Below are positions 4,188-62,867 of a stretch of 64,000 nucleotides of DNA, in pieces. The notes beneath the pieces were generated by a model, which did no database searches, was not told the origin of the DNA, and saw only the letters and a program-made list of their open reading frames with translations. The position numbers and the translations under genes are program-made. This DNA comes from Minisyncoccota bacterium (GTDB lineage: Bacteria; Patescibacteriota; Minisyncoccia; Phycocordibacterales; Phycocordibacteraceae). Positions within the stretch are counted from its first letter, which is position 1, and each line of letters starts with the position of its first letter. The stretch is from the NCBI GenBank assembly GCA_036405415.1, contig DASWXP010000002.1:427678-491677 (forward strand), read 5' to 3'.

Positions 4188-5654
4188 TTATTGTACGATG
4201 ACGCGCGCGCTCTGCGTGGTGCCAGGCTCGACGACGAACGGGATACTCGGCGTAGACGTCGAGAACGTGAATCCGCTCCCGATCGTGAAGCCGTACTGGT
4301 CCCACTCGAGCGAGAGCGGACGCGATCCGGAAGCATCCGTACTAGTCGCGATCACGGTCTTATAGATGGCGGCGCCCGTACCCGTGGTTCCCTTGAGCTT
4401 CTGTCCGGTGAGCGTGAACGGGACGTTCGGCGCCGGGATCGGTCCTACGACTGACGCGAGGCTCCACTTGAGGATGCGCGGCGCGCTCGTCGGGACGCTC
4501 GTCGAGAGGCTCGCTCCGAGCGCGAGTGTCGGATAGGTCGTCGTCGACACTCCCGAGAGCGATATCGGCGAGGATGAGAATCCTGCGCTGTTTCCTGGGA
4601 GCACGCTGTCCGGGAGCGGCGCGCCACTCTGGTCGAGCACGCGCACCAGCACACTTGTGCCGCCCCCTAGCACTGTTTGGAATGACGCGTCCGTCCACCG
4701 GACCAGGTATGAAGGCGCTAAAGGAAGGCCCTGGAACGAACCTGAGGATACGTATCCGCCCATGCCGTCCCCGGCGAGCGTCATAGCATCCGTGCTATGC
4801 ACCACATTCACGAGAGCGGTTACGCGCGCCGCCGAATCGAAAGTATCTTCGGTCGATGTCGCCTGCTCTGCATAGAAAGTCTGCACCGTGAACGAGGAGA
4901 GCACGTCTATAGCGAAGGTGCTGGTCGTGGTCTGTCCCTGCGCAACCGTGAGATACCCAGGGGTTGGGTTCTGGTTCGAGCTATCGCGCGCATAGGTCTG
5001 TGCCGAAGAGTAGCCGTCCTTGGTCACGGTGACGCGATAGTCGGTTGACGTAGCCGCGCCCGGGAATATAACCGCACCGGTTGTGTCGGTGAATGTCGTC
5101 ACGTCAACGTTCGGCGAGAGGCTCGGGTTATAGATACGGACCGATGCGCCCGACACCGCGCTTCCGAGCGCGTTCACTACCTGGATCCTGAGGGTACCGC
5201 CGCCCGTCGTGCTCTCTACGCCGTTCGGAGATACGTTCGATATGATCGCCACCTCGCGTTCCTCCCCCCGGAACGTGTAGCTCGCAGACACGCGTACGCG
5301 CTTGTAGTCAGTGGTGATGCCGTTTGTGTCCGCTGAGCCGCTTCCGTCTTTTGGATCGTCCACGTACTGCACGAATGTACGGACCGCATACGGGATGCCG
5401 TTCATGGTGGTGGTCGCGTACTGCGCTACCGGACCTGCGGGAATGCCGCCGATGGTCCCCACCGTCGCGTAGTCGAGCGAGCGGATGTATTCGATCTGCG
5501 TGGTCGCTACCGCGGTCGCGCCTGCCTTCGCTTTGGCCGAGGAAGACACGAGGAGCGAGGTGCGCAGGAGCCCGAGGAGCGCGACGAACACGATGAGCAC
5601 GAGCGCAGAACCGACGATAACGTCTACGAGCGTCATACCGCGCATCGGTTGCAT
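4188..5654 (-). CDS. large pilin-like protein (pseudopilin N-terminus plus beta-sandwich, CarboxypepD_reg-like domains)
   Basis: Prepilin-like N-terminus MQPMRG|MTLVDVIVGSALVLIV followed by about 450 aa that are Thr/Ser-rich. Start chosen at the ATG at 5654; the ORF-track GTG at 5672 is an alternative. Confidence 0.55.
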   Translation of the reverse strand: MQPMRGMTLVDVIVGSALVLIVFVALLGLLRTSLLVSSSAKAKAGATAVATTQIEYIRSLDYATVGTIGGIPAGPVAQYATTTMNGIPYAVRTFVQYVDDPKDGSGSADTNGITTDYKRVRVSASYTFRGEEREVAIISNVSPNGVESTTGGGTLRIQVVNALGSAVSGASVRIYNPSLSPNVDVTTFTDTTGAVIFPGAATSTDYRVTVTKDGYSSAQTYARDSSNQNPTPGYLTVAQGQTTTSTFAIDVLSSFTVQTFYAEQATSTEDTFDSAARVTALVNVVHSTDAMTLAGDGMGGYVSSGSFQGLPLAPSYLVRWTDASFQTVLGGGTSVLVRVLDQSGAPLPDSVLPGNSAGFSSSPISLSGVSTTTYPTLALGASLSTSVPTSAPRILKWSLASVVGPIPAPNVPFTLTGQKLKGTTGTGAAIYKTVIATSTDASGSRPLSLEWDQYGFTIGSGFTFSTSTPSIPFVVEPGTTQSARVIVQ

Positions 5655-5715
5655 AGATGCATGATACCGCACCAGAGTATGTGAAAGGCCGCGCGGCCCA
5701 GGCTTTGCTGTCGAG

Positions 5716-6927
5716 CTAGATCTTATCGGAGAGCGAGTAGATCGGCGTGATCATCGCCATCGCGAAGATGCCCACGGCGCCTCCGATGAAAAGCATGAGG
5801 AGCGGCTCAATGATGGTAGAGAGGTCCTTGGTGCGCTCCTCGACGTCGGTCTCGTAGTACTGCGCTACCTGCCCGAGCATGTCCGCTACCTTTCCGGTCT
5901 CCTCGCCCACGGCGATCATGTCGCCTACGAATACCGGGTAGAGCTTCGGATGATCGATGAACGACGCGGAAAGTGCCTCGCCCTTCCTGACGCGTTCTTC
6001 CGCTTCCCGGAGCACCTTCCCGAAGCTGTTGTCTCCCACCACTTCCCCTGAAATCTTGAGCGCGGAAAGCATCTCGACGCCGGAAGAAAGAAGCGACGAC
6101 AGGGAGCGTGCGGCACGTGCGCTCATGGTCTCGCGTACGAGTTCTCCGATAACCGGCATGCGGAGCGCGAGCATGAGGACGATCCGTGCGCCCGGCTTCG
6201 AGCGGACAAAGAAGAATATGCCGGCGAAGACGGCGATGAGGATTCCCATGGTAAGGAATGCGTTCGAGGCCATGAAATCAGACGTGTCGATGATGGCCTT
6301 CGTTGCTGCGGGAAGCTCTACCCCGAGCTCCTTGAACGTATTGGAAAGGGTCGGCACCACGTAGATGAGCATGAGCACGCCGATGATGACGATCGCGGTG
6401 AGGATGATCATCGGATAGATCATGGCGCCCTTCACCTTCTTCTGGAGGTTGAACGCCTTCTCCATCTGGCGCGCAACCACGGAAAGCGACTCGGCGAGCG
6501 TTCCTGATTCCTCGCCCGCTTTCGTCATGGCGATGAAGAGCTCCGAGAATACCTTCGGATGCTTCGCGAGCGCCTCATGGAACGAGGAGCCCTTCTTAAC
6601 CTCCTCGCTGAGCGCCGCAACGGTCTTCTTCAGGTATTTATTAGTTGCCTGGCGCTCGATAACAGAGAGCGCGCGCGTAAGCGGAAGACCCGCTGAAAGC
6701 ATCGCGGCGAGATTTTTCGTGAACGTTATCTTCTGGTCGGTCTTAATGCCCGAGCCGAAGGTTATCTGCGTCCATGCAGGACCGCTTCCGCCCCTCGCTT
6801 CTTCTACCGAGACAACTGTTGCGCCCTCCTTCTCCATCTCGCCGTACACCGCAAAGCGCGTCGGCGCTTCGATGACGCGATGCACTTCGCTTCCGTCACT
6901 GGTCTTCGCGGTTACGCGGAATTTCAT
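5716..6927 (-). CDS. pilC: type IV pilus assembly platform protein PilC (GspF family)
   Basis: Two T2SSF-domain repeats, three TM segments and the conserved IEPLLMLFIGGAVG C-terminal helix. Confidence 0.9.
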   Translation of the reverse strand: MKFRVTAKTSDGSEVHRVIEAPTRFAVYGEMEKEGATVVSVEEARGGSGPAWTQITFGSGIKTDQKITFTKNLAAMLSAGLPLTRALSVIERQATNKYLKKTVAALSEEVKKGSSFHEALAKHPKVFSELFIAMTKAGEESGTLAESLSVVARQMEKAFNLQKKVKGAMIYPMIILTAIVIIGVLMLIYVVPTLSNTFKELGVELPAATKAIIDTSDFMASNAFLTMGILIAVFAGIFFFVRSKPGARIVLMLALRMPVIGELVRETMSARAARSLSSLLSSGVEMLSALKISGEVVGDNSFGKVLREAEERVRKGEALSASFIDHPKLYPVFVGDMIAVGEETGKVADMLGQVAQYYETDVEERTKDLSTIIEPLLMLFIGGAVGIFAMAMITPIYSLSDKI

Positions 6928-7006
6928 ATCCGAATCGTAGCATGCAGATATGCGAACGGGCCGGGTTCCGTAGGAGGAACCCGGCCCGTGGCCAGACGAA
7001 GGCCGA

Positions 7007-7348
7007 TCAGTGACCGGAACGGGGCCTCGGCACCGTGGCCAGCAGGATGCCGGCCGAGACGCCGGCGATCAGCCCGAGCCAGCCGATGTCCTGGAGCAGT
7101 TCGAAGCCGCCCCAGCGGCACAGCAGCGCGATCAGCAGGCCGAGGCCGGCGATGACGAAGGCGATGTTCTCCGTCATCCACCAGTACAGCGCGGCCGCGA
7201 TGGCCATCGCGACCACGAAAGACCAGAGTCCTCCGACGCCCGTGTCGTTGTCCAGGGACACGAACGGGATCATGCCGGAGACCCAGGTGGCCCCAGCCGC
7301 GATGGCGACGGCAATCATGAGACCTGTGATGGTCTTTTTCATATTCAC
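7007..7348 (-). CDS. small four-TM membrane protein, hypothetical, in a compositionally foreign island (about 70-75% GC)
   Basis: Strong SD GGAGGAG 6 nt before the ATG. Codon third positions are dominated by G/C, unlike neighbouring genes. Four predicted hydrophobic helices. Downstream there is a perfect 12-bp hairpin GGGCCGGGTTCC..GGAACCCGGCCC. Confidence 0.5.
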   Translation of the reverse strand: MNMKKTITGLMIAVAIAAGATWVSGMIPFVSLDNDTGVGGLWSFVVAMAIAAALYWWMTENIAFVIAGLGLLIALLCRWGGFELLQDIGWLGLIAGVSAGILLATVPRPRSGH

Positions 7349-7402
7349 TCCTCCGAGAACACACTGTCGGAAATCCGGACAGAGAGGATGTGTTCCGCGT
7401 CC

Positions 7403-7431
7403 GTTATACTCCCCTACCCGTATAAAAACAA
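7403..7431 (-). promoter_or_regulatory. sigma70-like promoter for the 7007-7348 gene (TTGTTT-17-TATAAC on the minus strand)
   Basis: Read directly from the sequence in the 84-bp gap between the pilB stop and the small-gene start. The only support is hexamer similarity and 17-bp spacing. Confidence 0.3.
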
Positions 7432-7432
7432 T

Positions 7433-9229
7433 CTATTCAGAAACCGCACGGAGCACCTCCTCGATGGAGGTGATGCCGCGCGCGCTCTTGTAGATGCCGT
7501 CCTCAAGCATCGTGAGCATGCCCTCCTTGCGCGCCTGCGCCTCTATCGCGTCCGTTGTGCCGCTATGGAGGATGATGTCGCGGATCGCCGGCGACACCGA
7601 GAGCACCTCATGGATGCCGATGCGCCCTGAGTATCCGTCCTCGCACTGGGACGACGGCTTCGGACCATGGAACGGCACGCTCTCGATCTTCGTGCCCGCC
7701 TTCACGAGCTTCTCGTCCGTGAGCGCCTTCAATACCGCGTCGAACTTGTCGTCATGCGCTACCTTCGCGCGCTCTTCCGTATCGAGCGCGAACTGTTCCT
7801 TGTCGTCGCAGAGCCTGCGCACGAGACGCTGACCCACGATAACGCGGAGCGTGGAAACAAGGAGGAACGGCTCCACGCCCATATCGATGAGGCGCGGGAT
7901 GGCGCCGGCTGCGGAGTTGGTGTGGATGGTCGAGAGCACGAGGTGTCCCGTAAGCGCGGCGTTGATCGCGAGCGACGCGGTCTCGCCGTCGCGTATCTCT
8001 CCCACCATGATGATGTCCGGGTCCTGGCGCACGAGGGAACGGAGGCCGTTCGCGAACGTGAATCCGATCTCCGGCTTCACCTGCGTCTGGTTCACGCGCT
8101 TCATCTGGTACTCGATCGGGTCCTCGATCGTAGAGATGTTCACGTCCGGCGTATTGAGGATGTCGAGAATCGTATACAAGGTCGTCGTCTTTCCGGATCC
8201 GGTAGGACCAGAGATGAGGATGATGCCGGTGGTCTGCTTCGTCGCCTTATGAATGCGCTCCATGGTGTCGCCATGGAACCCGAGCACGTCGAGCGTGAAG
8301 CCTTCGCCCGTCTCGCGAAGGAGACGCATAACAATCTTCTCGCCGTAATAGGTCGGCAGCATCGACACGCGGAACGAGACCTTGTCGGTCTCGGTCTCCA
8401 TCTTGAAACGGCCGTCCTGCGGGAGACGCTTCTCGTCGAGCTTTAGGTTCGCGAGCACCTTGATGCGGGCCGTGATGCCGGCAGACGCGGTGCGCGGGAG
8501 CGTCATGGCGTCATGCAGCACACCGTCGATGCGATAGCGCACCAAGACTTCCTGCTCCATCGGCTCGATGTGGATGTCGGACGCCTTCTGGATGATGGCG
8601 TGACGCAGGAGCGTATCCACGATACGCACGATCGGCAGGTCCTCTGCCATCTTCTTGAGGTCCTCGCCCGACGCGTCGTCCCCCGCCCCTGCGTCCTTGA
8701 TGAGATTGATGCGGCCTGCCTCGGTCGAGATAAGGTCGCCGAACTCTTCCTTGAGCGACTTCTGGTACTGCAGCAGCACGTTCTTCAAAGACTCGTCGTC
8801 CGTTAGACGCGGAAGAATCTTGAGACCTGTCTTCTTACGCACCGAATCGATGGACGGGAGGTCTTCCGTATCAAGCATCGCTACCTCAAGCGAATCCCCT
8901 TCCTTCTTAAAGGCGATGATGGAGTGCGTGCGTGCAATCGGCTCTGGAATAAGTGACAGGACATTGAGATCAATCTTCTTGTCCTTCAAGTTCACGAACG
9001 GAATGCCGAGCACGTATGCCTTGATACGGCGGAGCGAGTCTGAAGAAAGAAGTCCCTGAGAGACGAGGATGTCGCCGATGGACTGTCCCCGGCGCTTTGC
9101 TTCCTCTTCCGCAGCGTCAACATCCTTCCTGGAGACGAGTCCGGAGTCGAGTATGAATTCCTTGAGTTCGCTTTCAGAGACCTGCATGCCGTTTAGTATT
9201 GAAAGTATAGCGCGCCACTGTTGAATCAC
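7433..9229 (-). CDS. pilB: type IV pilus assembly ATPase PilB (GspE family)
   Basis: Walker A GPTGSGKTTT, Asp box, Walker B DIIMVGEIRD and His box LVLSTIHTNSAAG, with a T2SSE_N-like N-terminal domain. The start is ambiguous: GTG at 9229 or ATG at 9187. Confidence 0.9.
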   Translation of the reverse strand: MIQQWRAILSILNGMQVSESELKEFILDSGLVSRKDVDAAEEEAKRRGQSIGDILVSQGLLSSDSLRRIKAYVLGIPFVNLKDKKIDLNVLSLIPEPIARTHSIIAFKKEGDSLEVAMLDTEDLPSIDSVRKKTGLKILPRLTDDESLKNVLLQYQKSLKEEFGDLISTEAGRINLIKDAGAGDDASGEDLKKMAEDLPIVRIVDTLLRHAIIQKASDIHIEPMEQEVLVRYRIDGVLHDAMTLPRTASAGITARIKVLANLKLDEKRLPQDGRFKMETETDKVSFRVSMLPTYYGEKIVMRLLRETGEGFTLDVLGFHGDTMERIHKATKQTTGIILISGPTGSGKTTTLYTILDILNTPDVNISTIEDPIEYQMKRVNQTQVKPEIGFTFANGLRSLVRQDPDIIMVGEIRDGETASLAINAALTGHLVLSTIHTNSAAGAIPRLIDMGVEPFLLVSTLRVIVGQRLVRRLCDDKEQFALDTEERAKVAHDDKFDAVLKALTDEKLVKAGTKIESVPFHGPKPSSQCEDGYSGRIGIHEVLSVSPAIRDIILHSGTTDAIEAQARKEGMLTMLEDGIYKSARGITSIEEVLRAVSE

Positions 9230-9255: not shown

Positions 9256-9291
9256 GGAAAAGAAAACGCCCCCACGATTGCTCGTGGGGGC
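9256..9291 (-). terminator. intrinsic terminator: 10-bp GC stem (GCCCCCACGA/TCGTGGGGGC) plus a T-tract on the minus strand
   Basis: Perfect hairpin followed by GTTTTCTTTTCC on the minus strand. It lies directly after the 9319-9750 gene and before pilB. Confidence 0.6.
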
Positions 9292-9318
9292 ACTTGTTTG
9301 GGCGTCGTCGGTTGTCGG

Positions 9319-9750
9319 TCAGCCCCGATAGTGGGGCGAGCCGGCACCCGGGACGAAGCCGCCGCCGAACCGCTTCAGGTTGAAGCGATCGCCCGGATAG
9401 ACCGGTACCATCACCTGGCTGTGATCGGTGTCGACCGCGAGCGCCGTCTTCACGTCGATCCGTTCGGACCGCGGATTGCTCGGCGTGCCCAGGAAGATGG
9501 GCAGATCGAAGCGGTCGGCGGTCCGGATGGCCGGCTCGTAGCCGATGCGCTGCACCAGGTTGTCGCCGCGCTGGATGGTGAATTCCGGCCGGTTCTGGCC
9601 GGTGACCAGCCAGACGGCGCCGGCCAGCAGGGCGGCGACGCCCAGGCCGATCATGGCGCGACGACGGTTGTTCGGGGTGTTCATGCCGGCGAAGAAGTCG
9701 TTGCCGGAATCGCCGGCCGGGCGAGCAGAAGGAATGGCGGTGTCGGACAC
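9319..9750 (-). CDS. hypothetical membrane-anchored protein in a second high-GC island
   Basis: GTG start preceded by GGGAGA. One TM segment (MIGLGVAALLAGAVWLV), then a roughly 90-aa domain. About 68-70% GC with a G/C third-position bias. The antisense 176-aa ORF is Arg-rich and was rejected. Confidence 0.45.
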   Translation of the reverse strand: MSDTAIPSARPAGDSGNDFFAGMNTPNNRRRAMIGLGVAALLAGAVWLVTGQNRPEFTIQRGDNLVQRIGYEPAIRTADRFDLPIFLGTPSNPRSERIDVKTALAVDTDHSQVMVPVYPGDRFNLKRFGGGFVPGAGSPHYRG

Positions 9751-9884
9751 GTTGGGTCTCCCGATGTGTGACTCGAAGGAACAGACCTCCGAGCCTGGTT
9801 AATAGGCGAAGGCATTACTCGAAACTAAGTAAAACGATACACTTTTATACTTAAAATGTCAATACTCTGTGGACGAGACACGAA

Positions 9885-9912
9885 TTGACCTCATGCCTAT
9901 ATATGGTATGCT
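9885..9912 (+). promoter_or_regulatory. candidate promoter for nusA (TTGACC-16-TATGCT) in an AT-rich 240-bp spacer
   Basis: Hexamer match only. Confidence 0.3.
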
Positions 9913-10021
9913 TTCCTTATCTGGAATGTCCGCACCCGCGGGCATTCTCTATTTTAGAGAAACCCGGATGCGTGCGACCATACCCTTATATACGGTGCGA
10001 ACAATCACATAGAGAAGACTT

Positions 10022-11413
10022 ATGTTGGACCTCAAGACCATAAACCTAGTGCTCGGCGAGTTCGAGGAGCGCGGCATCACGAAAGAGACGATGATCGACG
10101 CTATCGAGCAGGCGATGGCAACGGCGTACAAGAAGGAATACGGAAAGCGCGGACAGGTAATCCGCGGGGCTCTTGATATGAACACGGGTACCGTGTCATT
10201 CGAGCAGGTGAAGACCGTCGTGGACGAGACCCTCGTGCGCTTCCCTGAGGAAGGCGAGGAAGTAACCGAGCTTCCGGCGCATCATCCGCACTTCGATCGC
10301 GAGGAGGAGGTCGCAGAAGGCGAGCTTCCGCGCTACGACGCGGAGAAGCACATGCTTCTTGAGGACGCGCAGCGCATCAAGCGCGGTGCCGAGCTCGGCG
10401 AGGAGATCATCTTCCCGCTCGAGCCGCAGGACGATTTCGGCCGCATCGCTGCACAGACCGCAAAGCAGGTGGTGATCCAGAAGATTCGCGAAGCGGAGAA
10501 GCTCTCTATCCTTGACGAGTTCGGCCACAAGAAGGGCGAGATCGTGACGGGTATCGTGCAGCGCGCAGAGCGCGGCGCTATCTTCGTCGACCTTGGTCGC
10601 GCGACCGGCGTGATCCCGTATGAGGAGCAGATTCCTGGCGAGCGCTACCGTCCAGGCGAGCGCATCAGCGCCTACCTCTACGCCGTAGACGAAGGGTTCC
10701 GTGGCGTATACCTCCGCCTCTCGCGCAGCCATCCACGCTTCCTCACCCGTCTCTTCGAGATGGAGGTGCCGGAGCTTGCTGCGGGCGCTATCGAGATCAA
10801 GGGTCTCGCGCGCGAGCCGGGTTCCCGCACCAAGATCGCGATTGCTTCGAACGATCCACACGTGGATCCGGTTGGCTCCCTCGTGGGCCAGCGTGGTGTC
10901 CGCGTCTCGACCGTCATGGCGGCGCTCGGCGGCGAGCGCATCGACATCATCGAGTGGAGCGAGGACATGGCGTCCTACATCAAGGAGTCGCTTTCCCCTG
11001 CTACCGTGCTTGAGGTTGAGCTCAACGAAGAGGAGCGCCGCGCGAAGGTAACGGTATCCGAGGACCAGCAGTCGCTTGCGATTGGCCGCGGTGGCCAGAA
11101 CGTGCGCCTTGCCGCGAAGCTCACCGGCTGGAACATCGACATCATGTCAGTTGGCGGCGAGAGCGTCGCTGATGCGGACGGACAGCAGGAGGACGCAGTA
11201 TCCGCTGCTACCGACGAGTCCGTAGCCGAGGTTGAGAACGCCGAGGACATGGATCCGGCAGTTGCAGCCGGCATCGATCCGACAGAGACCGAGTCCGTGG
11301 TTACCGAGGACGATTCCGAAGACAACACGCTTACGGTTGAGGACGAGACGTCCACCACCGACGAAGGCAACGAATCGATCGCGGACGCTGAGGAGTCTCG
11401 CGACCAGGCATAA
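10022..11413 (+). CDS. nusA: transcription termination/antitermination factor NusA with an acidic C-terminal extension
   Basis: NusA N-terminal domain plus S1 plus two KH domains (GLAIGRGGQNVRLAAKLTGW), followed by a D/E-rich tail. Confidence 0.9.
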   Translation: MLDLKTINLVLGEFEERGITKETMIDAIEQAMATAYKKEYGKRGQVIRGALDMNTGTVSFEQVKTVVDETLVRFPEEGEEVTELPAHHPHFDREEEVAEGELPRYDAEKHMLLEDAQRIKRGAELGEEIIFPLEPQDDFGRIAAQTAKQVVIQKIREAEKLSILDEFGHKKGEIVTGIVQRAERGAIFVDLGRATGVIPYEEQIPGERYRPGERISAYLYAVDEGFRGVYLRLSRSHPRFLTRLFEMEVPELAAGAIEIKGLAREPGSRTKIAIASNDPHVDPVGSLVGQRGVRVSTVMAALGGERIDIIEWSEDMASYIKESLSPATVLEVELNEEERRAKVTVSEDQQSLAIGRGGQNVRLAAKLTGWNIDIMSVGGESVADADGQQEDAVSAATDESVAEVENAEDMDPAVAAGIDPTETESVVTEDDSEDNTLTVEDETSTTDEGNESIADAEESRDQA

Positions 11414-37957: not shown

Positions 37958-39784
37958 ATGGCACTCCTTGATTTCCTCGGAAAGAATAAGAAAGGGAACG
38001 ACGCGCCGGCTATAGCGCCGGTGCTTCCGAAGGATATCTACGCGGAAGGGGAGCTCCAGCTTGCGGACGCGATCGCGCCGGCCGCGCTCAAGGTAGGTCC
38101 GCGCGAGCTTGAGCTCGGCGAGAAGGTCTCGCGCTCGTTCTACACCATCTCGTATCCGCGCTTCTTGGTAGACAGCTGGTTCACCCCGATCATTAACCTC
38201 GACAAGGTGTTCGATGTCTCTATCTTCATCCACCCAGTGGAGACCGGCTCCGCATTGCGCGGCTTCCAGAAGAAGGTAGCGGAGATCGAGAGCCAGATCG
38301 CTGACCGCGAGGAGAAGGGCCTCGTCCGCGATCCGATGCTCGATACCGCGTATCGCGACCTCGAACAGCTCCGCGACCAGCTGCAGCAGGCCGAGGAGCA
38401 TATCTTCGAGGTAGGTTTGTACATAACGATATACGGAAGCTCCAAGGAGGAGCTCGACAAGATCGAGGCGGATGTCCGCGGCATCCTCGACGCGAAGCTG
38501 GTCTACACGAAGCCTGCCTTGTTCCAGCAGGAGCAGGGCTTCCGCTCCACGCTTCCGCTTGCGAACGACGAGCTCCAGGTTACCTCGAAGCTTAATTCCT
38601 CGCCGCTTTCCTCCATATTCCCGTTCGTCTCCTTCGACCTCACCTCAGACCGCGGCATCCTCTATGGCATCAACCGCCATAACGCGTCGTTGATCCTCTT
38701 CGACCGCTTCTCGCTCGAGAACTACAACTCCGTGGTATTCGCGAAGTCTGGTTCAGGCAAGTCGTACGCCGTGAAGCTCGAGATTCTCCGTTCGCTCATG
38801 TTCGGGACTGATGTCATCGTCATCGATCCGGAGCGCGAGTATGAGAACCTCGCACAGGCGACCGGCGGACGCACCTTCAACATTTCGCTTTCGTCTGAGC
38901 ATCACATCAACCCGTTCGACCTTCCGGCGGTGAAGGAGGATGAGGAGCCGGGGGACATCCTGCGCTCGAACATCATCAACCTCGTAGGACTCTTCCGCAT
39001 CATGCTTGGCGGCCTCTCGCCTGAAGAGGATGCGATCATCGACCGCGCAATCACCGAGACCTATGCGCTCAAAGACATCACCGGGGATGCCGACTTCACA
39101 GGAATCGAGCCGCCGCTCCTCTCTGACTTCGAGAACGTGCTCTCTGGCATGGAAGGCTCTGAATCGCTCGTAACGCGCCTTTCCAAGTACACGCACGGCA
39201 CCTGGGCCGGCTTCATCAACCAGCCGACCAACATCGACATAAACAAGCAGTTCATCGTCTTCTCGGTGCGCGACATGGAGGACGAGCTGAAGCCGGTGGC
39301 GATGTACATCATCACGCACTACATCTGGAACGCGGTGCGCAAGGACCTCCGTAAGCGCTTGCTTATCATCGACGAGGCCTGGTGGATGATGAAGTCGGAC
39401 GATACGGCGTCGTTCCTCTACAGCCTCGCGAAGCGCGGCCGCAAGTACTATCTCGGCGTCGCTACCATCACGCAGGACGTGGAAGACTTCCTTCGCTCGC
39501 CCTACGGCCGTCCGATCCTCACGAACTCGTCGATGCAGCTTCTCTTGAAGCAGTCACCGACCACCATCAACATACTCAAGGAAACCTTCAACCTTACGGA
39601 CGAAGAGAAGTTCCTGCTCCTTGAGTCCGGGGTGGGGGAGGGGCTCTTTTTCGCCGGCCTCAAGCATGTGGCTATCAAGGTGGTCGCCTCCTACACCGAA
39701 GACCAGATCATCACCTCAGACCCGTCGCAGCTCCTTCAGATCCGCCGCGAGAAGGAACGGATGGATCAAGGGCTTTCGGCATAG
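37958..39784 (+). CDS. VirB4/TrbE-family T4SS ATPase, C-terminal ATPase segment
   Basis: Walker A VVFAKSGSGKSY, Walker B LLIIDEAWWM, and CagE_TrbE_VirB-type region. Confidence 0.85.
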   Translation: MALLDFLGKNKKGNDAPAIAPVLPKDIYAEGELQLADAIAPAALKVGPRELELGEKVSRSFYTISYPRFLVDSWFTPIINLDKVFDVSIFIHPVETGSALRGFQKKVAEIESQIADREEKGLVRDPMLDTAYRDLEQLRDQLQQAEEHIFEVGLYITIYGSSKEELDKIEADVRGILDAKLVYTKPALFQQEQGFRSTLPLANDELQVTSKLNSSPLSSIFPFVSFDLTSDRGILYGINRHNASLILFDRFSLENYNSVVFAKSGSGKSYAVKLEILRSLMFGTDVIVIDPEREYENLAQATGGRTFNISLSSEHHINPFDLPAVKEDEEPGDILRSNIINLVGLFRIMLGGLSPEEDAIIDRAITETYALKDITGDADFTGIEPPLLSDFENVLSGMEGSESLVTRLSKYTHGTWAGFINQPTNIDINKQFIVFSVRDMEDELKPVAMYIITHYIWNAVRKDLRKRLLIIDEAWWMMKSDDTASFLYSLAKRGRKYYLGVATITQDVEDFLRSPYGRPILTNSSMQLLLKQSPTTINILKETFNLTDEEKFLLLESGVGEGLFFAGLKHVAIKVVASYTEDQIITSDPSQLLQIRREKERMDQGLSA

Positions 39785-40360: not shown

Positions 40361-41344
40361 GTGCATATGATACGAAGCGCGCTCATCGCACTAGCTCTTC
40401 TTCTTGGAGGAGTCGCTCATGCCCAGGCACTTCCCGGAGCCGAGCCTCTCACGGTCTTGCTTTCTCCTGAGCATCCCCGTCCATACCAATCCTTTCAGGT
40501 CTCTCCGCGGAGCTCCCTCATCGACCTCTCCGCAAGTACGGTCCGCGTGTCCGTAGACGGCACCCAGGTGTATGAAGGGAGCGGAACGCAAGCGGCGACC
40601 GTCCGTGCCGGAGCTCTCGGAACCCGCACGAATGTCACGGTTAGCGTGACTGACGCGGCAGGGAAGGTATACACCAAGCAGATCTCAGTGCGGCCTGCCG
40701 AGGTCTCGCTCGTACTCGAGCCTGCATCGACCGCGCATCCTTTCTATAAGGGCGGCGGGTTGGTGGCGTCAGAAGGGACGGTCCGTCTCATCGCGCTAGC
40801 AGACCTGCGCACGTCTGCTGGTGTCCGTATCCCGCCACAGAACCTCGTGTATACCTGGAGGCTAGGAGATCGTGTCCTTACGGACGCCTCAGGGATAGGG
40901 AAGTCGGCGCTTACTGCCACCGCTCCGGTCCGCTACCGGAACGCTGACATCAGCGTAACGGTGTCGAGCGCTGACAGCTCGCTCGTGGCAGAGGCGCGGA
41001 CCCTGGTCTCGGCCGTGGATCCTGTCGCTCGCGTCTACCAGAACGATCCGCTGCTCGGCCCGAACTTCGATATGGCGCTCGCGAGCCGGTTCTCTATGCC
41101 TGACACGGAAGCCACCTTCCGTGCCGTCGGGTACTTCTTTGCCGTTCCGCCTGTGTTCTCTTGGAACGTGAACAGCTCGTCCGGGGGCAGCGACAAGGAC
41201 GTTACGGTTCGCGCGACCGGAAACGGTACCGGCACCGCCCGGCTATCCCTTACTGCTACCGAGTCTGAATCCCGAAGGAGCGCCTCGTCCGCATTCACGG
41301 TTGATTTCGGCTCCGCCCGCGGCTTTGGATTCTTCGGCCTATAA
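40361..41344 (+). CDS. secreted hypothetical protein (beta-rich, Ser/Thr/Val-rich)
   Basis: Signal peptide ending AHAQA. Confidence 0.45.
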   Translation: MHMIRSALIALALLLGGVAHAQALPGAEPLTVLLSPEHPRPYQSFQVSPRSSLIDLSASTVRVSVDGTQVYEGSGTQAATVRAGALGTRTNVTVSVTDAAGKVYTKQISVRPAEVSLVLEPASTAHPFYKGGGLVASEGTVRLIALADLRTSAGVRIPPQNLVYTWRLGDRVLTDASGIGKSALTATAPVRYRNADISVTVSSADSSLVAEARTLVSAVDPVARVYQNDPLLGPNFDMALASRFSMPDTEATFRAVGYFFAVPPVFSWNVNSSSGGSDKDVTVRATGNGTGTARLSLTATESESRRSASSAFTVDFGSARGFGFFGL

Positions 41345-41347
41345 CCT

Positions 41348-55561: not shown

Positions 55562-55610
55562 GATACCGCCTCGGCGCGCGCGTTCCTAAGCCGCTTGGTA
55601 CAATTTCCCC

Positions 55611-61892: not shown

Positions 61893-62435
61893 CTATTTTG
61901 AGAGAGCTGCCTTAAGCCGCGCGTCCTTCCCGAGCACTGACGCCGGAACCCTCGAAAGGGCAGCTCGTGCCTCGCGTTCCGTGTATCCGAGGGCGACGAG
62001 CGTGTCGAATACTTCCGAGTCGTCTGTGTCATGTGTTTTCGCGCCTCCGACCTTCTCTGAGAGCTCGACGAGGAGCTTCTCTGCGGCTTTCTTCCCGAGG
62101 CCGATGACACGGGTGAGGTAATCGAGGTCGCGGGTGCCAATCGCGCCTTCGAGCGCTTCGCGCGGCGCCTTCCGAAGGATGCCAAGCGCGGTCTTGGGAC
62201 CCACGCCCGGAACGCCCACGAGAAGCTCGAAGAAGCGGCGCTCCGCCTCGTCCGGGAACCCGTAGAGATCCATGCCGTCCTGCTTAACTGCCAGATAGGT
62301 CTTAAGAGTGATTTCTTGGCCCTCAGCATAGGCTTCCGGAGCAGACATATATATGAATGCGCCCCAGCCGGAGATGTCGAGGATGATGCCTCCTGGCTCC
62401 GTGCCCGCTACCGTGCCGCGTACCTGCCTGATCAT
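61893..62435 (-). CDS. ruvA: Holliday junction DNA helicase subunit RuvA
   Basis: MIRQVRGTV start, two HhH motifs (VPGVGPKTA) and a C-terminal domain III. The ORF-track extension up to 62822 overlaps rpsT on the other strand and was rejected. Confidence 0.85.
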   Translation of the reverse strand: MIRQVRGTVAGTEPGGIILDISGWGAFIYMSAPEAYAEGQEITLKTYLAVKQDGMDLYGFPDEAERRFFELLVGVPGVGPKTALGILRKAPREALEGAIGTRDLDYLTRVIGLGKKAAEKLLVELSEKVGGAKTHDTDDSEVFDTLVALGYTEREARAALSRVPASVLGKDARLKAALSK

Positions 62436-62492
62436 AGGCGTATCGTAGCATTTCTTGCGCATATTCCCGGAATGCCGTAGTATCCGCACTAC

Positions 62493-62756
62493 ATGGCAAT
62501 CACCAAGAACGCAAAGAAGGCCCACCGCGCATCTCTCAAGAAGCGCGTCTTCAACGTCCGCCGCAAGCGCGCGCTTACCGACACCACCAAGGTTGTCCGC
62601 AAGGCGATCGCGACCGACGTGAAGGAGGCAGAGAAGTCCCTCTCGGCAGCCTACAAGGCGATCGACAAGGCAGCGAAGACCGGCGTCATCAAGAAGAACG
62701 CGGCGTCCCGCAAGAAGTCCCGCCTCGCACAGGCAATCGCTCGCGCGAAGGCATAA
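62493..62756 (+). CDS. rpsT: 30S ribosomal protein S20
   Basis: 87-aa basic helical protein with an AITKNAKKAHRAS N-terminus. Confidence 0.9.
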   Translation: MAITKNAKKAHRASLKKRVFNVRRKRALTDTTKVVRKAIATDVKEAEKSLSAAYKAIDKAAKTGVIKKNAASRKKSRLAQAIARAKA

Positions 62757-62760
62757 GCAA

Positions 62761-62789
62761 AAGACCCGCACTCCGCGGGTCTTTTGCTT
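62761..62789 (+). terminator. intrinsic terminator after rpsT
   Basis: AAGACCCGCactcGCGGGTCTTTTGCTTTT. Confidence 0.6.
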
Positions 62790-62795
62790 TTCAGG

Positions 62796-62867
62796 TGCTC
62801 TCGGCAGGAATCGAACCTGCATTGCCTCCTTCGGAGGGAGGCGTCCTATCCATTGAACGACGAGAGC
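62796..62867 (-). tRNA. tRNA-Arg (anticodon CCG)
   Basis: Acceptor GCTCTCG/CGAGAGC, anticodon loop CTCCGAA, T-loop TTCGATT. Confidence 0.8.

Follow-up and report, generated by a model that had tools for sequence, protein, structure and literature searches.

A probable native accessory cassette, carrying a fast-evolving small membrane-protein gene, in the pilB-pilC slot of Paceibacterota

Why should a short GC-rich interval, holding one small gene with a canonical Shine-Dalgarno (SD) sequence, lie between pilB and pilC, the genes for the extension ATPase and the platform protein of the type IV pilus? The question is raised by positions 6928-7432 of a 64,000-nucleotide stretch of contig DASWXP010000002.1 (hereafter the window, by which the whole stretch is meant), part of a Candidatus Paceibacterota metagenome-assembled genome (MAG) that falls in a Kaiserbacteria-related subclade. 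In an earlier note on this DNA, the interval was taken for a horizontally acquired or engineered cassette, or for an assembly chimera, rather than native sequence. By taking into account the related loci now available, the cassette is better read as a long-standing native accessory gene of its clade, with a history decoupled from that of its flanks, and not as recent foreign or artificial DNA. The identity of the small gene and this description of its evolution can be put forward with high confidence. The broader explanation, namely that it is a fast-evolving accessory cassette with a conserved frame that belongs to the pilB-pilC slot, is the best overall and is considered fairly probable.

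The junctions of the interval are genuine. Contigs from four separately assembled sequencing runs (SRR11449177, SRR11449180, SRR11449182 and SRR11449183) are base-for-base identical to the window through both of them, over positions 5746-8024, 5746-7540 or 6259-7540, with one 11-kb contig matching 1-8024. Since four independent run-level assemblies are exact across the junctions, as is the NCBI MAG, there is no assembly chimera. The proposal of an engineered cassette is equally untenable, because two contigs of the European Nucleotide Archive (ENA) that stem from unrelated projects (L001 and L002) carry the same order of pilB, small gene and pilC, the small protein being 72-75% identical to that of the window, at the same place, and the flanks 97% (PilB C-terminus) and 94% (PilC N-terminus) identical. 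The sharp compositional edges of the interval, along with its 'textbook' SD and hairpin, are all that can be said for an artefact of either kind; however, with identical junctions in the separate assemblies and diverged orthologues of the same organisation in other projects and collections, such an origin has a negligible probability.

A scan with PilB of one genome per GTDB species returned 80 loci, all from Paceibacterota (Kaiserbacteria and related groups), and in most of them only 4-30 nt separate pilB from pilC. In the closest relatives the gap is instead about 500 nt (L007, L048, L008, L036, L012, L021 and L022) or 1,059 nt (L047), and it is occupied by open reading frames (ORFs) on the same strand, coding for 109-133 strongly hydrophobic residues with four transmembrane (TM) segments; BLAST finds none of these ORFs similar to the window protein. 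When JGI metagenomes were scanned with PilC, further loci with the same arrangement came to light (L088, L089/L108, L092, L094, L100, L106, L110, L111 and L113); scanning JGI metagenomes with the small protein itself gave nothing. About 20 related Paceibacterota loci share the cassette in this slot, with ORFs of 97-136 residues and four TM segments, which removes the ground for calling it other than native. The members that were found by sequence (P0002, P0003 and P0006-P0009) are all placed in this slot or share a contig with a known slot locus: P0008 is on the contig of L012 and P0009 on that of L036, P0007 is in the slot in NCBI, ENA and JGI contigs, and P0006 is in the slot on a Logan contig. 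All of the approximately 25 known members are found in the pilB-pilC slot, and none elsewhere. Positional orthology can, as this case illustrates, uncover families missed by sequence search.

In a neighbour-joining tree of PilB and PilC the 500-nt gap is limited to one subclade, with scattered absences inside it (L009, L018, L044 and L013), and the outgroups lack the gene and have gaps of 4-30 nt. In the cassette-less L009, L018, L044, L010 and L011, the pilC promoter (GTGCTAnnAT...ATG) directly follows the pilB stop, so that the cassette behaves as a clean insertion/deletion unit; this bears out the earlier impression of a discrete cassette, which occupies the space from the pilB stop to the pilC promoter and which related lineages either have or lack as a whole. 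The slot holds other things as well. In L047 (1454-2514) the small gene is present as two paralogues in tandem, with 35% identity, each of which has its own leader and SD and precedes a near-identical terminator region of about 100 nt; their GC content at third codon positions (GC3) is 0.93 and 0.75, with about 0.47 for pilB and pilC of that locus. Unrelated cargo consists of a 2-kb insert with a 275-residue ORF (L017:7746-9752 and L091), of RelE/ParE-like small ORFs with partners (L031:7556-9635 and L043:7746-8934), of a hydrophilic SD-led ORF of 115 residues (L023:5419-5912) and of an antisense ORF of 95 residues (L028:7764-8164). Judged by these occupants, the pilB-pilC spacer gives the impression of a hotspot open to accessory genes in general.

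In the window the cassette sits, as had been noted, exactly in the space between the two pilus genes and on their strand, the minus strand, to which all coordinates of this paragraph refer. pilB (7433..9229; Pfam T2SSE, E = 2.9e-125, plus MshEN) ends with a TAG at 7433-7435, its true start probably being the ATG near 9187, with relatives aligning only from residue 13-15 on. pilC (5716..6927; Pfam T2SSF, E = 2.4e-60, two repeats) is translated from 6927, leaving a spacer of 505 nt (6928-7432) with one ORF. The first element after the pilB stop is the promoter-like TTGTTT-17-TATAAC at 7403..7431, also rightly pointed out before (-35 TTGTTT at 7426-7431, a spacer of 17 nt and -10 TATAAC at 7403-7408). 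It is not called by a generic sigma-70 scan; TATAAC, TATAAA or TATATC, with TTGnnn 16-17 nt upstream, occurs at the same place in L001, L002, L007, L048, L008, L036 and L012. The 5' leader of about 55 nt (7343..7402) contains a stem-loop (7358-7394) and the predicted SD, GGAGGAG, at 7348-7354, which is followed by TGAAT and then, at a distance of 5 nt, by the ATG of the small gene. The gene (7007..7342) codes for 111 residues, identical to the NCBI hypothetical protein VGE53_02695. The 113-residue four-TM ORF of the earlier note is there, running through 7007..7348 from an in-frame GTG; however, translation more likely begins at the ATG at 7342 than at the GTG two codons upstream, the ATG being better spaced from the SD and yielding the deposited 111-residue protein. 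On the 3' side of the stop codon lies a hairpin (6956..6989) that is perfect, as reported, with a stem of 14 rather than 12 bp (6956-6969 and 6976-6989) and a loop of 6, and that is a probable transcription terminator or 3' stabiliser. It is followed by GTTCGCATATC, a degenerate T-tract, and a terminator scan does not call the site. Last comes the promoter of a leaderless pilC (6928..6942), consisting of an extended -10 element, TGCTACGAT, at 6934-6942, with the pilC ATG 6 nt downstream. With promoter, structured leader of about 55 nt, strong SD, 111-residue ORF and hairpin, the region has the makings of a self-contained transcription unit.

At all cassette loci the parts follow one another in the same order: the -10 box comes first, then a leader of 50-60 nt that contains one or two small hairpins, a GGAG-type SD and the ORF, and a GC-rich hairpin precedes the promoter of pilC. 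The SD is found 4-9 nt before the start codon in all positional orthologues. Across 18 loci the hairpin differs in sequence and keeps its pairing, both partners having changed in 6 of the 9 predicted pairs; a T-rich tract (TTTC..CTTTTG) follows it in most of them, and the pilC promoter motif, TGC(A/G)TGCTA(C/G/A)(G/A)AT, is almost invariant. The coding part is not preserved in this way, as best seen by comparing L008 with L036. Their PilB and PilC proteins are 98% identical, with 0.35-0.46 synonymous substitutions per synonymous site (dS) and about 0.01 nonsynonymous substitutions per nonsynonymous site (dN), and their leaders and terminators are about 90% identical, whereas the small proteins share only 32-34% of their residues (dN 0.63) and the DNA of the ORF is near random save for one 15-nt patch and the last codons. 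Small-protein similarity is undetectable once flank identity drops below approximately 93%. These comparisons are the basis for describing the cassette as a conserved regulatory frame around a hypervariable coding sequence. An identity profile of L008 and L036 on a 100-nt scale places the small ORF among three hypervariable blocks, the others being the gene before pilB and the pilin-like genes after pilC, with 90-98% identity elsewhere. The pilin-like genes 3' of pilC (9500-11200 in this comparison) cannot be aligned, with 20-40% DNA identity, and the approximately 600 nt upstream of pilB (5400-6000) are likewise unalignable.

A frame that is better conserved than the ORF within it, both in the leader and in the 3' hairpin, also invites the opposite interpretation, by which there is no protein gene but a conserved RNA or regulatory element, with the ORF an accident of GC-rich sequence. 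In its favour, the substitutions among the window, L001 and L002 fall equally on codon positions 1, 2 and 3, with a dN/dS ratio (omega) of about 0.8, and GC-rich DNA here gives long ORFs in several frames. However, a strong three-nucleotide periodicity of composition (GC of 0.60/0.50/0.90 at codon positions 1/2/3) is found in one frame only, a well-spaced SD and ATG are kept in about 20 loci, and every orthologue remains open over 97-136 codons and codes for four hydrophobic helices though its DNA is scrambled. Furthermore, indels are in frame, that separating the window from L001 and L002 being of 3 nt, and there is no Rfam match, a search of 6800-7600 giving sub-threshold noise only. A non-coding element is, by these data, very improbable, and the small gene is taken to be real and protein-coding on account of the periodicity, of the in-frame indel and of the SD, ATG and four-TM ORF in about 20 loci. 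The leader itself folds no better than shuffled sequence (z between -0.26 and +0.31 for most, with -2.8 only in L036); the minimum free energy stem-loop of the window leader leaves the SD free, at a z of -0.26 that is not significant. A riboswitch or thermosensor is for this reason not claimed.

The four hydrophobic helices of the small protein span residues 2-24, 37-57, 61-78 and 81-103, and an N-in/C-in topology is probable because of the basic residues at the N-terminus and in the C-terminal tail. The extracytoplasmic loops would then be of about 12 and 6 residues, with nearly all of the protein embedded in the inner membrane. Its composition is rich in Ala, Gly, Leu, Val and Trp (16 Ala, 15 Gly, 15 Leu and 6 Trp of 111 residues). 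An AlphaFold2 model built from a 3-sequence alignment also has four helices, with a predicted local distance difference test score (pLDDT) of 58 and a predicted template modelling score of 0.38. An alignment of 12 small proteins contains no invariant residue but Met1; the features that recur are basic residues at the N-terminus, P-x-W-x-W where TM2 begins, G/P-x-D/E in the TM3-TM4 loop, and a tail that is again basic. What appears to be kept in this family is topology and hydrophobicity, together with the basic N-terminus, the P-x-W-x-W motif, an acidic TM3-TM4 loop and the basic C-terminal tail.

The SD is exceptional in its genome context, and the claim that neighbouring genes lack one stands. 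A scan that required an SD of at least 5 nt at the first start scored only two of the 56 ORFs in the 64 kb, and the small gene is effectively the sole canonical SD-led one. In the other, at 61893-62822 (-), the 'AAGGAGG' sits inside a tRNA-Arg gene (62794-62867 (-)) and the start is spurious; the true one must lie well downstream, because the RuvA domains begin only at residue 130. Most genes of the window have no SD and a -10-like TAnnnT box 6-9 nt ahead of the start codon (for example at 6934-6939, 41335-41347 and 55598-55610), and leaderless genes seem to make up most of the genome. The window includes no rRNA gene from which the anti-SD of the 16S rRNA could be read.

The base composition of the interval is less extreme than first described. 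Instead of a GC content of 70-75%, 62.8% was measured for 6928-7432, with about 66.4% in the small ORF, 63% in the 3' spacer and 50% in the leader region, to be compared with a window mean of 58.9% and with 58.3% and 59.2% in pilC and pilB, respectively. ORF-sized windows of at least 66% GC make up 1.7% of the 64 kb, with a maximum of 69.6%. That codons ending in G or C dominate is correct: the GC3 of the small ORF is 0.90, the highest among the 56 ORFs, the others ranging from 0.59 to 0.82 except for a second small ORF (9319-9750) at 0.88. By resampling codons from the codon usage of the window for the amino acid sequence of the small protein, a GC3 of 0.741 ± 0.040 was expected, which places the observed value at z = 4.0. 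The total GC of the ORF is 0.667, with 0.613 expected from the codon usage of the window and 0.629 from that of pilB and pilC, so that amino acid composition accounts for one third to one half of the excess and codon choice for the remainder. The GC anomaly of the island is real but modest, and lies mainly at third codon positions. Codon optimisation for high expression was considered as its cause and finds no support, the other genes of high GC3 being a mixed set (TraG-like, PPase, ClpP, PBP and PolA).

Whether this composition betrays a recent arrival from a foreign, higher-GC, SD-using donor, the island having not yet become host-like, can be judged from the relatives. The earlier note had allowed that orthologous loci carrying the gene at normal composition would speak against such an origin, and of this the first part holds, since relatives do carry the gene, and the second does not, their composition being equally elevated rather than normal. 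Many members of the family have a high GC3 whatever the GC of their host genome. GC3 is well above that of the flanks in low-GC relatives (0.93 versus 0.47 in L047a, 0.76 versus 0.57 in L007), as a foreign origin would have it; however, the orthologues of L008, L012 and L021 match the GC3 of their flanks, with no excess. The GC3 outlier of four standard deviations, the only canonical SD in a leaderless genome, the orphan status of the protein, the presence or absence of the cassette among relatives and a second orphan, leadered gene of high GC on the other side of pilB are further points in favour of a foreign donor. They are outweighed by the fact that the -10 box, leader, SD and hairpin are common to an entire subclade, within which PilC identity falls to about 66%, so that the insertion must be old, and by the lack of any homologue outside Paceibacterota/Patescibacteria among 5.8 billion clustered proteins and 1.84 billion representatives. 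Among the features by which genomic islands are recognised, deviating composition is evident (GC3 0.90, z = 4; GC 0.667 versus 0.589 in the window), while the 505-bp island has no mobility genes, no tRNA (the nearest is more than 10 kb away) and no bracketing direct repeats, and the cassette is absent only from more distant or scattered lineages and not from close relatives. A recent foreign acquisition is improbable on this evidence. Of the idea of a horizontally acquired cassette there remain the discrete unit, the outlying SD and GC3 and a history decoupled from the flanks, and what is lost is the recent foreign import. More generally, when a 'GC island with an SD' is met in a leaderless genome, it may prove to be an accessory gene that is old and native and evolves fast, and not foreign DNA.

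The decoupling is evident when the window is compared with L001 and L002. In this trio the flanks differ with dS of 0.45-1.07 and dN of 0.006-0.025, and the small ORF with dS of 0.16-0.22, dN of 0.13-0.16 and omega of 0.72-0.87, its changes being evenly spread over the codon positions (15/16/12). The leader is 91-93% identical, while the synonymous sites of the flanks differ by 34-61%, and the small ORF shows a significant shortage of synonymous change when set against the flanks (Fisher p = 4e-6). Divergence is discordant in both directions, the ORF being far more diverged than the flanks in L008 and L036 and less so at synonymous sites in the trio. The pair whose flanks are the less diverged thus has alleles that no longer resemble each other, and the trio, with more diverged flanks, has similar ones; the simplest reading is therefore that alleles moved between lineages by recombination and then drifted or diversified rapidly. 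The GC3 excess kept by the gene in low-GC relatives such as L047 is in keeping with such exchange. The cassette alleles would have been exchanged by homologous recombination among related lineages, and the small ORF seems to be under very weak or diversifying amino acid constraint. If either allele exchange or diversifying selection holds true, the small gene becomes a candidate pilus specificity determinant in uncultured episymbionts.

Searches for a known family gave little. The small protein and then a 17-member profile found 3 and 6 hits, respectively, among 5.8 billion proteins, all of them hypothetical proteins of Paceibacterota/Patescibacteria, and one 50% cluster among the 1.84 billion representatives matches the small protein; two further hits were long repetitive proteins and were treated as spurious. 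Pfam, NCBIfam, PHROG, PADLOC and PDB sequences yielded no match to the small family above threshold, and the SPW-repeat and other small four-TM domains of unknown function (DUFs), named earlier as candidate families, gave no Pfam match above the gathering score. DUF7470 (PF24282) and CedA2 (NF041798), the only weak profile matches of the window protein, were rejected at E values of 0.012-0.013 and 15.8-15.9 bits, with cut-offs of 27 and 80. Both are short hydrophobic proteins like the one under study, and the matches most likely reflect hydrophobic composition; DUF7470 was matched by one of 12 family members, and DUF5400 (E = 0.0038) by one of 12 relatives, no other Pfam entry scoring at E ≤ 0.1. 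The only PHROG match was to phrog_27404, of unknown function, by 2 of 12 members (best E = 7.5e-5), and none of the 12 matched the PADLOC anti-phage defence profiles at E ≤ 0.05. A holin or a CidA/LrgA-like protein was discarded as there is no Pfam holin or LrgA match, and the neighbours are pilB and pilC with no lysin or phage context. The target of a diversity-generating retroelement was also discarded, since a blastn search at sensitive settings with the island as query found no second (template) copy in the 64-kb window.

As to function, it is tentatively proposed that the small protein assists or modulates the type IV pilus machine without being indispensable to it, acting on the platform or on membrane-stored prepilins. 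The proposal is based on the invariable linkage to pilB and pilC and on the co-variation with the pilin block in one comparison (L008 and L036). According to this scheme, transcription of the small gene would begin at its own promoter and end at the hairpin, that of pilC would start anew from the leaderless promoter, and the SD-led leader would make the translational output independent of that of the leaderless pilB and pilC. The product could then contact PilC or membrane-stored prepilins through helix-helix packing, such packing in the bilayer being the expected source of activity of a protein that is nearly all in the membrane and has tiny external loops.

Several considerations weigh against the accessory-cassette account and its pilus role. 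There is no family match and no structural relative, and the model is of low confidence (pLDDT 58). The unrelated cargo of the slot in other lineages makes position weak evidence for a role in the pilus, and repeated loss implies that the gene is dispensable. The trio comparison involves three short contigs, those with similar alleles being of 0.7-1.4 kb, and its low dS could be due not to recent exchange but to a lasting force at third positions, either selection or biased gene conversion, that keeps GC3 at about 0.9. Finally, an omega of about 0.8 with equal change at the codon positions is also what is expected of barely constrained sequence. Persistent third-position pressure would fit the high GC3 kept in low-GC hosts (L047a and L007) but not L008, L012 and L021.

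Some of these same features would suit a hitchhiker unrelated to pili, lodged in a permissive slot, such as an immunity or exclusion factor in the membrane, directed against a membrane-acting toxin or phage, or a determinant of self and non-self, evolving in an arms race. This possibility is unlikely when taken alone, although nearly as likely as the pilus accessory. The slot cargo elsewhere is indeed unrelated (RelE/ParE-like in L031 and L043, the 2-kb insert in L017 and L091, the hydrophilic ORF in L023), the gene has its own promoter and terminator and hence does not share a transcript with pilB or pilC, its distribution is patchy and it can be dispensed with, its sequence is extremely variable and none of the residues is invariant, and it is tandemly duplicated in L047. 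However, no match was found in PADLOC or to a PHROG with annotated function, no toxin, lysin or phage gene adjoins it, external loops of about 12 and 6 residues offer little surface for an external arms race, and all of the approximately 25 members are confined to this one slot.

Known systems offer partial parallels to both ideas. The TfpY, TfpX and TfpZ (FimB-like) pilin accessory proteins of Pseudomonas aeruginosa and other Pseudomonadota have 170-245 residues, with three N-terminal TM helices and a periplasmic beta-sheet globular domain (PMC11841053). They resemble the product of the small gene in being small membrane proteins of type IV pilus loci whose biochemical function is unknown, encoded by variable, horizontally exchanged cassettes, with poorly conserved sequences and a terminator hairpin before the neighbouring pilus gene; they are non-essential and modulate pilus assembly (PMC11841053). 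An identity with them is rejected, as the small protein has 111 residues, four TM segments and no soluble domain, and no sequence similarity was detected. Furthermore, TfpY-like genes follow the major pilin gene, whereas the small gene lies between pilB and pilC, with N_methyl pilin-like genes after pilC, and its host is a monoderm-like bacterium of the candidate phyla radiation (CPR) and not a member of the Pseudomonadota. The pilin groups I-V of P. aeruginosa are allelic cassettes of pilin and accessory genes at pilus loci (PMC11841053). There, as here, conserved machinery flanks divergent alleles that do not track genome relatedness, and in L008 and L036 the pilin-like genes after pilC are hypervariable along with the small gene, as in allelic pilin cassettes. 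The variable unit is, however, a surface-exposed pilin in P. aeruginosa and in the present case a protein integral to the membrane that exposes almost no surface, for which reason the selective agent is not obvious. Small phage-exclusion and immunity proteins, such as lambda RexB, T4 Imm and the immunity proteins of pore-formers, have about 80-150 residues and 2-4 TM segments, evolve fast, and are orphans with stand-alone expression. The likeness to the small gene would extend to size, number of TM segments, fast evolution, orphan status and stand-alone expression; unlike them, the small gene has no partner toxin, sensor or prophage context, nor a PADLOC or annotated PHROG match.

Type IV pili are regarded as central to host attachment and DNA uptake in ultrasmall CPR/Patescibacteria (PMC11623550). 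The list of parts of the CPR pilus derives almost wholly from homology to model bacteria. The small gene would add to it a clade-specific component in the core pilB-pilC pair, from an uncharacterised family annotated only as hypothetical, which escaped annotation because it has no detectable homologues. A bolder and rather doubtful extension would make of the cassette a hypervariable determinant of specificity or exclusion, coupled to the type IV pilus/DNA-uptake machine of episymbiotic CPR bacteria, a tiny membrane subunit that would gate PilC-dependent pilus function or the entry of DNA or phage, with alleles diversified by an arms race and shuffled across lineages through recombination, the conserved leader and terminator serving as 'handles'. 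If so, it would be a new kind of allelic switch within a pilus operon, and the sole SD-translated gene of an otherwise leaderless genome.

Two further genes of the window deserve mention. The second high-GC orphan ORF (9319-9750 (-)), on the other side of pilB, codes for 143 residues with one TM helix, has a GC of 0.69 and a GC3 of 0.88 (z = 4.2) and occupies the region 9264-9862. It has its own TTGACA-17-TATCGT promoter (9862-9834), a leader of about 80 nt, GGGAGA ahead of the GTG at which it starts and, at 9295-9264, a strong terminator hairpin accompanied by a T-run, and its product is a singleton among 5.8 billion proteins. It was considered as a conserved partner of the small gene and rejected, relatives having a TetR gene or other ORFs upstream of pilB. 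Elsewhere, at 37958-39784 (+), a protein of 608 residues with TraG/VirB4-like P-loop domains (PF19044, E = 7e-25) is encoded by the gene with the highest GC3 among the large ones (0.82), and may belong to a conjugation-like or DNA-transport system.

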